DNA of 64,000 nucleotides from Thermoanaerobaculia bacterium (GCA_035996875.1 DASYJD010000023.1:14293-78292); one strand, 5' to 3'; shown: positions 27,331-46,906, numbered from the stretch's first letter. Numbers and translations: made by a program. The notes: generated by a model not told the origin, from the sequence alone.

Positions 27331-27531
27331 ATGAAGAAGATCCTGCAGCTCGCTGCCCTCGCCTTCGTCCTCACCGCGGGCCTATCTCCGGCCCGGTCCA
27401 TCGTCATCACCCCCACTTACTGTGGCGACCCTTGCTCTCCGAATGGCGACGAGAGAGGTTGCATCGACAACAGCGGCCCCTTCATCAAGCGCGTCATCTG
27501 TACCTGTGTCAACGGCCATTGGGCCTGCTGA
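27331..27531 (+). CDS. small secreted cysteine-rich peptide (66 aa precursor, 6 Cys in ~44-aa mature part)
   Basis: AAGGAGA RBS 5 nt before ATG. MKKILQLAALAFVLTAGLSPARS signal peptide, then IVITPTYCGDPCSPNGDERGCIDNSGPFIKRVICTCVNGHWAC. Confidence 0.55.
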   Translation: MKKILQLAALAFVLTAGLSPARSIVITPTYCGDPCSPNGDERGCIDNSGPFIKRVICTCVNGHWAC

Positions 27532-27565
27532 CGCGTACCAGCGCCCATCGGCCCGGCGACCCGAA

Positions 27566-27590
27566 CCCCGGGGCTCGCATCGCGAGCCCC
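27566..27590. terminator. GC-rich hairpin (CCGGGGCTCGC-atc-GCGAGCCCCGG) between convergent genes, possible bidirectional terminator
   Basis: 11-bp perfect stem seen in sequence between the 3' ends of 27331..27531 (+) and 27625..29886 (-). No clear U-tract. Confidence 0.4.
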
Positions 27591-27624
27591 GGTACTCTCC
27601 GAGGTTGCCGGGAAGCCGGACCGG

Positions 27625-29886
27625 CTACTGGAAGTAGCCCACCACGTCCACCAGGACGTGCGTGGAAGCCGAGACGCCGAGGGTCGGCTTGATCTTCAGC
27701 GTGCCAGTCGCCGAAATTTGGGCGATGGCGTTGTTGGCGCGGATGGCGCCGAGGCCGAAGCTGACGATGTTGTTGGCGGCCGTCGGCGGCTCGACAGCAT
27801 AGACGGCGAGATCGCCGCTGCTGGTGGGGCCGACGGTGGTGACGTTGATCGCCACCGCCGTGGCGGTCGCCGGCACGCCGCAGCCGCTGACGGCGACCTC
27901 GCGGACGACTCCCGAAGCGATGGGGCCGGCCGGCTGGTTGCGCGTATCGAGGAGCCGGCAGGGCGTGATGGTGTAGAAGCCGTGAATCACGCCGACGCCG
28001 GCGGGGGCGAGAGTCTGCAATTGCAGCGTCATGGGCGCGCCGGCCGTACCGGCCTCGAACACGCCGAGGGTCGACTGTGCCGCCGCCGCCGCCTGGTTGC
28101 TGTCGAAACGGAAGGAGACCATCGTCGCGTAGTCGATCTCGGCGGGGGGCGTGGTGGCGGCGGGGGCCGTCCAGGTGATCCCGTTCGCGTCGATCGTCGC
28201 CGTCCAGTCATTGGCGGCAAAGCCGTCGCCATCCGAGTACGCGATGTTTTCGATCACTCCGGCAGCGGTGTTGAACGGCACGCTGAAACTCTTGATCCGG
28301 CGGTCGAAGTCGTGGTTCTGCAAGGCGTAGGCATAGCGCTTCCGGCCAGGGCTCCCCGCCACGTCGGTGACGCGGACGGCGAGTTGCACGTGCCCTTCGC
28401 CGGTGTCGAGAGACTTGTTGTCGGCGTTCGGTCCCGGAGTCGTCGGATTGACCCAGGCATTGATCGCGGGACCCTGGGAGTACGCGCCGACCGTGGGGAA
28501 GCTCCAAATGCTCCCCGGCTTCGTCGGCGTGACCTGCCGGTAGCCCATGCTGTTGAAGATGTTGCGGTCATCGCGGATGATGTAGAACGCTTCGACGTAG
28601 TACGTGGCCCCGGCGATCTGCAGGTCGGTCTCGGCGGCCTTCAGCCCATGGGTGAAGGCGTTTTCGCCGGAGCCGAAGAAATCCTGCGTGCAATCGCCGT
28701 TGGTGTCGAAGTGGCTCGGGATGCCGCCGCAGTGGGACCAGATCCCGGTCGAGGCGGTGACTTCGGAGCGCGGGGCGAGGGAGCCGGTGTCGTTGTTGGT
28801 GCCTGTCCCGTAGACGTCCGTGCAGCCGAGGCCGAGGATGTGCGAGTTCGTGCAGGCGCCCGCGTCGCAGCCGTTGTTGAGGGTCAGGAAGGCGTGCTTG
28901 AGGTCGCTGCGGCCGAGCGGCTCGAGGACGCCGGCGTTGGAGCGCTCCATCTGCCAGACGAGGAACGGATGCTGGTCGTTCCAGGGAGGCACTCCGAGGT
29001 TGGTGAATTTGGAGTACCAGGGCACGTTGGCGGTGCCGACGTTCTTCAGATCCGCCGACGGCAGGACCACCACCACCGACCGGCCGTTCACCGTGGCGAT
29101 GCCGGCCTGGCCGATGCTGGACATGTTCGTCAACGCGACGTCGACAGTGCCGGACCAGTCGCCACAGGCCGGCGGTACCGCGCCGACGGGCGGCAGCGGG
29201 GCAGCCGGCAGACGGCCCACCTTGAGCGTCGCGTCGAGGTCGAGAACGCCGACGTTCAAGCCGGCGTAGCGGTCCTCACCCAGCAGATGGGCGAGGGCGG
29301 GCAAGATCCGCAGGTCCGCATTCAGGTAGCGGAGCTGGCCGGTCTTGGCGTCGAATTCCCACTGCGCGTCCGCCGTGGTGAGCAGCGCGACACCCGAGGC
29401 GTCGACCAGCTCGAGAGTAGTCGTCTTCTGGCCGGGCCGCAGCACGAGGCTCGACAGGTCGAACAGGCGGCCTTCACCGTGCAGGAGGAGGCCGCCATGG
29501 AAGTAGAGCGGGCCGCTTTCGAAGCCGTGGAAGCCGTCCGTCGCCACGGCGGCGCGCAGGACGATCGGGCCGTCGGCATCGAACGACGGCGCGTTGGGCG
29601 ACACGACGGATAGCGGGTGCCGCGAGTGCGGCCTGCCGCTCGGCGCGTTGGTCGTCACTTCGAGACCGAGGCCCGACAATGTCTCGGCGTTGAGCCCGAC
29701 CGTCGTCACCGCATCGAGGACCGTCCACGAAGCCGTTTCGACCTCCGCCTTCTCAGGCGGTGCCGGGGGAGCTCCCGCCCACCCCGGCGCGGCGCCGAGA
29801 GCGAAAGCAGAGGCTAAAGCGAAGAGGAGGCCAGTCCGCAGGACTGACCAGGGCGAATGACGACTCGGCGTATCGGTATCTGGCAT
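27625..29886 (-). CDS. large secreted protein of unknown function with a conserved C-terminal PCR(L/V)xDTR...VDVVGYF beta-domain
   Basis: Start at MPDTDTPSRHSPWSVLRTGLLFALASAFALGAAPGWA (signal peptide; Met 42 of track ORF). The C-terminal ~110 aa (TPCRLLDTRNQ...GCGVPATATAVAINVTTVGPTSSGDLAVY...THVLVDVVGYF) matches a recurrent uncharacterised domain I recall from actinobacterial/deltaproteobacterial secreted proteins. Confidence 0.7.
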   Translation of the reverse strand: MPDTDTPSRHSPWSVLRTGLLFALASAFALGAAPGWAGAPPAPPEKAEVETASWTVLDAVTTVGLNAETLSGLGLEVTTNAPSGRPHSRHPLSVVSPNAPSFDADGPIVLRAAVATDGFHGFESGPLYFHGGLLLHGEGRLFDLSSLVLRPGQKTTTLELVDASGVALLTTADAQWEFDAKTGQLRYLNADLRILPALAHLLGEDRYAGLNVGVLDLDATLKVGRLPAAPLPPVGAVPPACGDWSGTVDVALTNMSSIGQAGIATVNGRSVVVVLPSADLKNVGTANVPWYSKFTNLGVPPWNDQHPFLVWQMERSNAGVLEPLGRSDLKHAFLTLNNGCDAGACTNSHILGLGCTDVYGTGTNNDTGSLAPRSEVTASTGIWSHCGGIPSHFDTNGDCTQDFFGSGENAFTHGLKAAETDLQIAGATYYVEAFYIIRDDRNIFNSMGYRQVTPTKPGSIWSFPTVGAYSQGPAINAWVNPTTPGPNADNKSLDTGEGHVQLAVRVTDVAGSPGRKRYAYALQNHDFDRRIKSFSVPFNTAAGVIENIAYSDGDGFAANDWTATIDANGITWTAPAATTPPAEIDYATMVSFRFDSNQAAAAAQSTLGVFEAGTAGAPMTLQLQTLAPAGVGVIHGFYTITPCRLLDTRNQPAGPIASGVVREVAVSGCGVPATATAVAINVTTVGPTSSGDLAVYAVEPPTAANNIVSFGLGAIRANNAIAQISATGTLKIKPTLGVSASTHVLVDVVGYFQ

Positions 29887-30060
29887 GCGAGATCCCCCGG
29901 GGCGAATTGCCTTGAGTCTATCGGGGGTTCCCCAGCTGTTGCAAGTGGACGCCTCCTCAACGACCGGCACCGCCGTCCCGCAGGACCGGTTGTGCGTGCC
30001 GGTGGCCAAAGACGGTTTCCTGCCGCCCGGTTGATGAAGACTCTGCGGCGGTGAAGCCTG

Positions 30061-45639: not shown

Positions 45640-45689
45640 GTTTGAAGTATATCCATACTGCGGTCTAACGATACTGTCGTTCAGCGGCG

Positions 45690-45790
45690 GGTTAGCCGGG
45701 TCGACTCCGCAAGCGAGGCTGCCGTCTTCATGGGGTACACCAAGTCCAAGCTCGCCCGGGAGGTCAACCGCCTGACCGGTTGGCGAGGCC
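45690..45790 (+). pseudogene. ~100-bp fragment of the Y1 transposase gene found at 47276..48196
   Basis: cgagcgaggctgccgtcttcatggggtacaccaagtccaagctcgcccgggaggtcaaccgcctgaccggttggcgaggccct is about 95% identical to 47485..47570 (encodes ...[22 protein letters not shown]). Confidence 0.5.
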
Positions 45791-45843
45791 CTGGGCGTGG
45801 CGAGGAGGTGCTTCTTCTTCGCTTTTGGCTAGAGCTAGCCCGC

Positions 45844-46275
45844 CTAGTCCCCCTCATCCCTGACCTTCACATCCTTCACTTCCGCAATCTCCGAAATCAC
45901 AATCGCCCGCATTCCCTTCCGCTCAAACGCAATCCCCGTCGCCCGCACATACTTCCCCACAAACGGCATCAGCTTCTGCCGCTGATCGTAGTCCGGCATC
46001 TTGTCCGAAATCGGCAAATACAAATCGCCATCCTTCGTCAAAATCGCAATTGGCGACCCGCCTTTCACGCAATCCATCACGCACTTCAGGCTCATGCTCG
46101 TCGCCTTCCCATCCAGATTCTGAATTGGGCAAGCAACGTCGCGCACAGTTCCCTCTATCGTTACCTTCGATCGATTCGCCCGCGCACCCTCCATCGAAGT
46201 ATGCTGCGCGGCCGCAGCCGAAATCGCCGCCACGCCGCACCCAACCGCCAGGAAAAGCTCCAAAATTCGCCTCAT
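45844..46275 (-). CDS. secreted hypothetical protein (142 aa), low-GC
   Basis: Signal peptide MRRILELFLAVGCGVAAISAAAA (Met 42 of track ORF). No recognised motifs. Confidence 0.5.
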   Translation of the reverse strand: MRRILELFLAVGCGVAAISAAAAQHTSMEGARANRSKVTIEGTVRDVACPIQNLDGKATSMSLKCVMDCVKGGSPIAILTKDGDLYLPISDKMPDYDQRQKLMPFVGKYVRATGIAFERKGMRAIVISEIAEVKDVKVRDEGD

Positions 46276-46576
46276 AGCTGCTCCTTCCTTTTCGCTCGGC
46301 GCGAAGTTACCACGTCTAACGGTTGAGCTGAGAACAAGGGCGGACGAGAAGGCCGCCCTTGTTACGAGTCCGGCAGCTTGAAGTTGGACGCGTGGCAACT
46401 AAGAAGAGCCTGGCACTCCTGCTAGCGGGCTTCTCCCTGACGGTTCCGCGGCGCCCAAACAGGAGCTGACCTCGCGGAAGAGGCTCAAATCGGCGACTCC
46501 TTGGCCCTTCCGCGCAAACAGTGCGGAACTCACTGGACCGCCGGAGGAACCCGGCGACCCAGCTCCTCGCAGCTTA

Positions 46577-46906
46577 TCAGGAGAGATTGGCCGTGCAGGT
46601 GCAGTTCAGGAGACCGTCCGCCGGGCAGGTTCCGAAGTCGTCGCAGAACATGAGTCTGCCATTGGGGGCGACTCCGCACTGCGCGAAATCATCAGCCCCC
46701 CGGCAGATCGCCACGCTGCAGGAACCACACTTCGGCCGGGGAAACATGAGCTTAGGAACGGCCGGGTTGGAGAACGGCAGCGCCGCCACCGAGGAATTCG
46801 CGGCACAGGAGGCCGGTGCCTCGAAGGTCAAGGATGCCGCATGGCTCGCCCAAGAGGCGAACAGAAGGGCGGCGGTCAGGAGCGACAGGGTGAGCATGGG
46901 TTTCAT
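46577..46906 (-). CDS. small secreted cysteine-rich protein (109 aa, 10 Cys)
   Basis: Signal peptide MKPMLTLSLLTAALLFASWASHAAS, then ...CAANSS...CGSCSVAICRGADDFAQCGVAPNGRLMFCDDFGTCPADGLLNCTCTANLS. Confidence 0.5.
   Translation of the reverse strand: MKPMLTLSLLTAALLFASWASHAASLTFEAPASCAANSSVAALPFSNPAVPKLMFPRPKCGSCSVAICRGADDFAQCGVAPNGRLMFCDDFGTCPADGLLNCTCTANLS

Follow-up and report, generated by a model that had tools for sequence, protein, structure and literature searches.

Bufferins are Cys-containing metallophores of the class of peptides that are ribosomally synthesised and then modified after translation (RiPPs). They are modified by MNIO enzymes, exported through Sec and encoded by bufABCD, with a DoxX gene and a DUF2063 partner (PMC11626156, PMC12452194). 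Other described systems with which small Cys-rich gene products can be compared are class I lanthipeptides and double-glycine-leader bacteriocins, the DsbA/DsbB (or VKOR) pathway, and generic disulfide-rich mini-proteins (knottin-, defensin- and toxin-like proteins and disintegrins). Here we analysed a 64,000-nt stretch of DNA from a Thermoanaerobaculia bacterium (GCA_035996875.1, DASYJD010000023.1:14293-78292; this whole stretch is called the window below), which contains four small Cys-rich genes, named A, B, C and D, together with a dsbA gene and a DoxX-like gene. Like bufferins, the products of A, B and C are small precursors with predicted Sec-type signal peptides and conserved Cys, encoded near a DoxX-like gene; like the mini-proteins, they are predicted to keep 40-60 residues on maturation, among them 6-8 conserved Cys. 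An earlier reading of the sequence alone (the sequence-only reading) had taken the four genes as a functional set tied to the local DsbA/DoxX pair. We found that the genes are real, conserved and mutually unrelated, that their Cys are conserved and that their linkage is not. The window probably holds four independent, lineage-restricted small genes and not one system, and the exported products would be oxidised in trans by the general Dsb machinery.

The genes in question are located as follows.

27331-27531, plus strand: gene A (66 aa, 6 Cys)
35354-35533, plus strand: gene D (59 aa, 6 Cys)
35648-35950, minus strand: gene B (100 aa, 7 Cys), convergent with D
43401-44054, minus strand: DsbA gene
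44824-45639, minus strand: DoxX-like gene (271-aa multi-pass membrane protein)
46577-46906, minus strand: gene C (109 aa, 9 Cys)

The window has a guanine-plus-cytosine (GC) content of about 65%. The host of the exact window proteins is a Thermoanaerobaculia (Acidobacteriota) metagenome-assembled genome (MAG; NCBI HEV75044xx, locus tags VGS07_059xx-060xx), and identical copies of all four small proteins (4/4) are present in public collections, from a Thermoanaerobaculia MAG. The four open reading frames (ORFs) translate as the sequence-only reading had described, with B and C on the minus strand. Its assignment of signal peptides stands in part: Sec-type signal peptides are predicted for A, B and C, whose N-termini have a positive charge, a hydrophobic core and an AxA-like site (inspection and hydropathy filter), while D has a leader and no signal peptide. 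A Shine-Dalgarno (SD) site, AAGGAG (as in A), GGAGGAG (as in B) or CAGGAG, is located 5-9 nt 5′ of the ATG in all four genes. An equally strong SD site was found in only about 6 of 29 other window genes, at nominal starts that are themselves uncertain.

Cys-richness alone carries no information in this GC-rich DNA, because at least 4 Cys are present in 194 of the 1830 six-frame ORF starts of 30-150 aa. When at least 4 Cys, a signal-peptide-like N-terminus and a 5-nt SD site were required together, exactly A, B and C were recovered from the whole 64 kb, and 0.17 ORFs per 64 kb passed the same strict filter in block-shuffled copies of the window. The earlier argument that so many small Cys-rich ORFs with ribosome-binding sites and signal peptides would not arise by chance agrees with this count (3 versus 0.17 per 64 kb). 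A motif search of the window for further D-like leaders recovered D alone.

Conservation across genomes, proposed earlier as a check on these ORFs, was found: homologues with invariant Cys are present in related Thermoanaerobaculia sequences for all four (11 for A, 14 for B, about 30 cluster representatives for C and 2 for D). A, B, C and D are real, conserved genes. The second check, the ratio of nonsynonymous to synonymous substitution rates (dN/dS), was informative for three of them. A, B and D, with dN/dS of 0.15-0.53, are under purifying selection.

The 66-aa precursor of A consists of the predicted signal peptide MKKILQLAALAFVLTAGLSPARS followed by a 43-aa mature peptide with 6 Cys. Its homologues share 48-88% identity and five invariant Cys. 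The place of the sixth Cys divides the sequences into two subfamilies: six have it at position 46, the remaining six at position 66, and none at both. This swap fits a conserved, relocated disulfide partner. The dN/dS of family A is 0.15-0.39. No Pfam, NCBIfam or PDB match was found when the family members were scanned; single members matched Toxin_3 and Myticin at chance level (E 0.008). The AlphaFold2 (AF2) model of A was unusable, with a predicted local distance difference test score (pLDDT) of 58. In the related locus L008, homology to the window is limited to gene A and about 60 nt upstream of it, and the flanks differ. An antagonistic or bacteriocin-like role for A is a speculative guess, weaker than the same guess for C, and is drawn only from these non-conserved flanks.

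The B precursor (100 aa) has the predicted signal peptide MRTRWILAASILALTLTPGALRA and an Ala/Pro-rich linker, and it ends in a C-terminal cluster of six Cys, CxxCx4-5CxxLHSCVLxxCC. Its 14 homologues share 48-81% identity; the six C-terminal Cys and an N-terminal MRTRW are invariant and the middle linker is variable. Mean pairwise identity among the 15 members is 80% in the signal-peptide region (35879-35950), 44% in the linker and 62% in the Cys tail, and dN/dS is 0.30-0.53. B has no meaningful Pfam, NCBIfam or PDB match. One homologue (L004) is located downstream of a TonB-dependent receptor, and in the closest relative the B homologue shows partial synteny with M20 and glyoxalase genes. The Cys tail might act as a ligand- or metal-binding thiol cluster, which is a tentative guess. 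In L013, at 628-1808, and likewise in L014, the B homologue lies between two more genes for small secreted Cys-rich proteins. One encodes 67 aa, with 12 Cys among about 40 mature residues, and the other 144 aa; both are conserved, each within a cluster of its own.

In the C precursor (109 aa), a predicted signal peptide is followed by a variable linker, in which one Cys is semi-conserved, and by a C-terminal domain of about 50 aa with eight conserved Cys (CGxCSx3CxGx6CGx8-10CxDxGxCxxDGx4CxC). An exhaustive HMMER search gave about 30 cluster representatives of about 110 aa, in which the eight C-terminal Cys are invariant or nearly so; a genome scan with a narrower C alignment gave two loci only. 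Large repeat proteins matched by the C linker were disregarded as low-complexity matches. In GenBank, C is 185 aa long (HEV7504448.1; 46577-47134, minus strand), starting at 47134, and the signal peptide is thereby hidden. We place the start at the ATG at 46906 and regard the GenBank start as too early, because about 30 homologues are of about 110 aa and an SD site precedes this ATG. This entry is an example of automated annotation obscuring small secreted proteins.

The C domain was modelled by AF2 as a small beta-sheet with a pLDDT of about 97. C has no Pfam, NCBIfam or PDB sequence match and the model has no PDB fold match, the best PDB fold candidate being a disintegrin. With its eight invariant or nearly invariant Cys in a confidently modelled domain, and with the Cys swap of family A, a disulfide-bonded mature form is plausible for these proteins. 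The only DNA pair for C, with a 97%-identical homologue, gave a dN/dS of about 1.2 on about 10 substitutions.

The surroundings of C point to an unstable locus. In the related contig L012, three tandem C paralogues with 68-91% identity are found at 1331-3271, the first of which is frameshifted. A gene for a 184-aa membrane protein stands among them, and in L002 this membrane protein is again encoded after the C homologue. Tandem, frameshifted copies with a membrane protein are a pattern typical of accessory, diversifying genes. An antagonistic or bacteriocin-like role for C may be suggested with low confidence because of these tandem diversifying copies, the pseudogene copy and the small membrane protein adjoining C in two relatives. 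In the window, C is preceded by a divergent gene like RayT, the HUH transposase associated with repetitive extragenic palindromic (REP) sequences (REP-associated tyrosine transposase; 47276-48196, plus strand). It matches NCBIfam REP_Tyr_transpos below cut-off (E 8.9e-12), and JGI labels members of its cluster RayT. A rayT-like remnant also lies beside the C homologue in L002/L011 (OY970373.1). A 94-nt direct repeat, 96% identical, occurs at 45700-45793 and at 47480-47573 (inside the rayT-like gene), the copies being 1.78 kb apart. Between them lie a gene for a 143-aa protein, gene C itself and rayT in its 5′ part; this duplication suggests a past rearrangement or insertion at the C locus.

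Just downstream of C, an 85-nt non-coding element (46428-46512) recurs at L012 1165-1245 and L002 7379-7463. It is 94-96% identical near C-family genes in these two relatives, where the surrounding DNA is not conserved, and no Rfam match was found for it. Candidates for its nature are a REP-like or small mobile element and a regulatory RNA. The 143-aa gene (45844-46275, minus strand), which lies downstream of C on the same strand, encodes a secreted protein with the predicted signal peptide MRRILELFLAVGCGVAAISAAAAQ and 3 Cys in the mature part. It has no Pfam match, and its cluster has 52 members, of which the named ones are all annotated Thermoanaerobaculia.

Gene D encodes 59 aa with no signal peptide, comprising a leader (MKKNVKKLLLSKETVAYLSGPKLSNVVGM) and a core (VSHPNDSCGCNGETSNGPFNCLTCGLSCQC) with 6 Cys and 6 Ser/Thr. 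The leader marginally passes NCBIfam NF038153 lant_leader_L1a (23.0 bits, cut-off 22, E 6.7e-5), and D falls below the cut-off of NF038158. It is named 'class I lanthipeptide' at NCBI because of the NF038153 match just above cut-off. Two homologues were found and a metagenome scan added none. The core SCGCNGETSNGPFNCxTCGLxCQ is conserved (80% identity versus 56% for the leader), five Cys are invariant across the three sequences, and dN/dS is 0.28. D is similar to class I lanthipeptide L1a precursors in its leader, MKK..KL.L.KET..L, and its short core rich in Cys and Ser/Thr. It is also similar to double-glycine-leader bacteriocin or RiPP precursors in that the leaders of the homologues end in ...AVGG and ...VAAG. 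Unlike double-glycine leaders, the window copy ends in ...VVGM, with VGM in place of GG, and a modified state of D is at present a prediction from its sequence. At L002 7654-7830 (plus strand), 2.2 kb upstream of the C homologue in a relative with a 7.66-Mb chromosome, a further leader-type peptide with 4 Cys is encoded (MKKKIQKSLKLNRETLVSL...AVG...), which indicates that D-like leaders recur in the lineage with different cores.

The DsbA of the sequence-only reading was confirmed. The longest ORF (43401-44084, minus strand) scores above cut-off with two Pfam models, Thioredoxin_4 (62.1 bits) and DSBA (58.9 bits), and has the active site CGYC (in FQCGYCG) and a signal-peptide-like N-terminus, MTANIRGIARWVAAAGLAIALGPQSWAHA. 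The start is likely M11 of this ORF, which gives 43401-44054. The best NCBIfam match, to the Rcas_1661 family of thioredoxin-like (seleno)lipoproteins, is below cut-off at 96 bits. The DoxX-like membrane protein was recovered less firmly: it is multi-pass and is named 'DoxX family protein' at NCBI, but it matches Pfam DoxX (PF07681) below cut-off, with 18.5 bits against 23.6 (E 0.0033), over residues 149-224 only, and the scan gave no NCBIfam match. The two genes are separated by an unrelated gene (44074-44649, minus strand) and a 175-nt gap. The product of this gene, 191 aa here and 158 aa in the NCBI version, has no family match and no signal peptide. As in the DsbA/DsbB (or VKOR) pathway, the window encodes a signal-peptide-bearing thioredoxin-fold CxxC protein of the DSBA family. 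In contrast to that pathway, the window ORFs scanned gave no match to DsbB or VKOR, the partner resembles DoxX only weakly, and its pairing with dsbA is not kept in relatives. DoxX is not, to our knowledge, an established re-oxidant of DsbA.

B and C have a similar layout by eye and were considered as distant homologues. BLASTP gave an E of 2.9, and hhalign of the two families aligned the signal peptide only, with 25% probability, so that this was rejected. A, B and C are classed as three mutually unrelated families, and the four small genes as not homologous to one another. They form separate transcription units spread over 20 kb on both strands, and the genes interspersed with them (TauE, LuxR, M20 and M90 peptidases, glyoxalases, AHSA1) are unrelated.

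To examine linkage, all proteins of the window were compared by tblastn with 16 loci of relatives, which were reached from homologues of A, B, C, D or DoxX. In none of the 16 was a pair from the group A, B, C, D, DsbA and DoxX found together. Homologues of the DoxX-like gene with 90-94% identity (L005-L007) have no DsbA or other window gene nearby. Chromosome OY970373.1 (7.66 Mb) carries its C homologue at 0.12 Mb but its D homologue megabases away, at 4.96 Mb, with no DsbA or DoxX gene within 10 kb of either. The families being unrelated, the genes scattered and the linkage not conserved, the proposed functional set tied to the local DsbA/DoxX is not supported. The proximity of the small genes to dsbA and the DoxX-like gene is probably a coincidence. 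Small secreted Cys-rich genes are frequent in Thermoanaerobaculia, in rearranging, partly mobile contexts, and several would be found in one 64-kb window for this reason. Further examples in the relatives, each conserved in its own cluster, are one of 115 aa in L002 and those on both sides of the B homologue in L013 and L014. The contexts are read as mobile or unstable because of the rayT-like gene and 94-nt duplication around C, the tandem and frameshifted C copies in L012 and the homology of A to L008 ending at the gene boundaries.

With independent genes, the A, B and C precursors would be exported through Sec and their signal peptides removed. Their conserved Cys would then be oxidised to intramolecular disulfides by a general periplasmic thiol oxidase. 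The window DsbA could oxidise exported Cys-rich proteins and is a candidate for this oxidase, with an action in trans. Small proteins of compact and stable form, working outside the cytoplasm, would result. D would be a cytoplasmic leader-plus-core peptide of the bacteriocin or RiPP precursor type, and any genes for its processing or export would be encoded outside the window. Apart from this scheme, what is new is three unannotated, lineage-specific families of small secreted, predicted disulfide-rich proteins in Thermoanaerobaculia, one with a confident fold unmatched in the PDB, and an orphan lanthipeptide-type precursor, D, with no synthetase nearby. The remaining interest is in these uncharacterised families, above all the C domain and the B tail.

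Several points weigh against four independent genes. The signal peptide of B is more conserved than its mature part, which a plain Sec substrate does not explain. The dN/dS of C says nothing about selection because the 97%-identical pair differs by only about 10 substitutions. Export and disulfide formation, like the biological role of the small proteins, are predicted from sequence features. In L013 and L014 three small Cys-rich genes are adjacent, so some clustering occurs. The window has three such genes in 64 kb against roughly one additional example in about 131 kb of related loci, a small and biased sample, and a mild local enrichment may exist.

Among other readings, it is unlikely that the C domain is a new disulfide-rich fold serving as a bacteriocin-like effector with an immunity partner, or that B or D is the substrate of an unrecognised maturation enzyme. 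The effector is suggested by the eight Cys of C, its confident model with no PDB fold match, the tandem copies and the small membrane protein adjoining C in two relatives. Novel maturation is suggested by the unusually conserved signal peptide and the invariant C-terminal Cys tail of B and by D being an orphan lanthipeptide-like precursor.

Conventional RiPP chemistry, in which D would be a genuine class I lanthipeptide or other modified peptide and at least one of A, B and C a bufferin-like Sec-exported precursor, with enzymes encoded elsewhere or unrecognised in the window, appears quite improbable. It is consistent with D passing NF038153 and with its core of 6 Ser/Thr and 6 Cys, with the unusually conserved signal peptide of B and with several large window proteins that have no family assignment. 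Bufferins also provide a precedent for Sec signal peptides plus conserved Cys marking RiPP precursors, in clusters with a DoxX gene (PMC11626156). However, the window ORFs scanned gave no match to Lant_dehydr, LANC_like, Peptidase_C39 (the peptidase domain of PCAT exporters), radical-SAM, MNIO (DUF692), DUF2063 or DUF2282. The locus of the D homologue (L001) was no different: none of these was found among the called genes within 10 kb, where an ABC transporter lacks the C39 domain. Unlike class I lanthipeptides and double-glycine bacteriocins, D is found with no LanB, LanC or C39-peptidase ABC exporter in the 64 kb or within 10 kb of its homologue. An 863-aa kinase-domain protein near this homologue was considered as a LanKC; its kinase domain is N-terminal and it was read as unlike LanKC. 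The 914-aa neighbour of D in the window was rejected as a maturase, with a signal peptide, only a weak BNR match and no PDB sequence match; it is probably extracytoplasmic, judging from its signal peptide and the BNR match. The bufferin/MNIO reading, which was prompted by the DoxX-like gene with Sec-signal Cys peptides, was abandoned on the missing DUF692, DUF2063 and DUF2282 matches, in which the window differs from bufferin loci. It differs also in that A, B and C share no operon with the DoxX-like gene and are unlinked to it in relatives. DUF692 and DUF2063 gave no match in the Pfam-annotated loci of the homologues, none of the 58 A, B and C family members scanned matched DUF2282 or BUF_6/12Cys in Pfam or NCBIfam, and no candidate maturase is common to the surroundings of the A, B and C homologues. 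A literature search on class I lanthipeptide leaders in Acidobacteria gave nothing relevant.

The original proposal, that the small Cys-rich proteins are dedicated clients of the local DsbA/DoxX pair in an island for secreted toxins or signals, is very improbable. If true, it would have meant an island devoted to the oxidative folding of secreted toxins, in a phylum that has been little studied; the evidence argues against it. The DsbA is real, has CGYC and looks periplasmic, C and the DoxX-like gene share a strand and are 0.9 kb apart, and three secreted Cys-rich genes per 64 kb exceed the shuffled expectation. Against this, linkage is not conserved in any related locus, whether reached from the A, B, C, D or DoxX side. 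Between dsbA and A or B/D lie 8-16 kb of DNA that carry unrelated genes on both strands, a signal peptide is missing from D, the DoxX-like protein falls short of the Pfam cut-off, and dsbA and the DoxX-like gene are themselves parted by an unrelated gene and a gap. Finally, the ORFs could be frames that are open by chance in GC-rich DNA and no genes, as the 194 short ORF starts and the weak codon-position GC pattern of B (0.62/0.67/0.73), which other ORFs overlap, might suggest. This reading has practically no chance of being right and is already refuted by conservation: all four have homologues in which length, start and Cys positions are kept at identities as low as about 30-50%. All four also have strong SD sites, dN/dS is below 1 for A, B and D, and the C domain gave a confident AF2 model.

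Four independent small genes also agree with the gene map of the region from 26 to 48 kb, which was built from the codon-position GC pattern and family scans. The region is a mosaic of unrelated functions on both strands and no operon. The order of features is given below.

plus strand, start of the map: DUF2089 regulator gene, then TauE exporter gene, before A
27331-27531, plus strand: gene A, after the TauE exporter gene
minus strand: gene for a 794-aa protein with no family match, after A
minus strand: DUF4199 gene, after the 794-aa gene
minus strand: gene for a LuxR-type regulator, after the DUF4199 gene
plus strand: gene for the 914-aa signal-peptide protein with a weak BNR match, adjoining the D region
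35096-35311, plus strand: 71-aa ORF, between the 914-aa gene and D
35354-35533, plus strand: gene D, after the 71-aa ORF
35577-35611: perfect 10-bp inverted repeat, GCCCTCGCGG / CCGCGAGGGC, with a 15-nt loop, between convergent D and B
35648-35950, minus strand: gene B
minus strand: AHSA1 gene, after B
minus strand: M20 peptidase gene, after the AHSA1 gene
minus strand: two glyoxalase-fold genes, after the M20 peptidase gene
minus strand: M90 peptidase gene, after the glyoxalase-fold genes
minus strand: gene for a 567-aa protein with no family match, after the M90 peptidase gene
43401-44054, minus strand: DsbA gene, after the 567-aa gene
44074-44649, minus strand: gene for the 191-aa protein, between the DsbA and DoxX-like genes
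44824-45639, minus strand: DoxX-like gene
45844-46275, minus strand: gene for the 143-aa secreted protein
46577-46906, minus strand: gene C, after the 143-aa gene
47276-48196, plus strand: RayT-like transposase gene, divergent from C

The inverted repeat between D and B is possibly a bidirectional terminator; it has no T-run, and a consensus terminator scan did not call it. Promoter and terminator scans around the four small genes gave no informative signal. The 71-aa ORF at 35096-35311 was called by JGI, has no family match and no signal peptide, and is of doubtful gene status. Scans of the window for Rfam families and tRNA genes gave no match. On the minus strand, two very large genes next to each other (48711-52679, 1322 aa; 52711-58089, 1792 aa) have a good codon-position GC pattern and zero Pfam or NCBIfam matches. 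Other products encoded in the window include an EndoU-type nuclease domain protein (5267-5791, minus strand), a Uma2-family endonuclease (11344-12285, minus strand) and the selenocysteine synthase SelA (13423-14853, plus strand).

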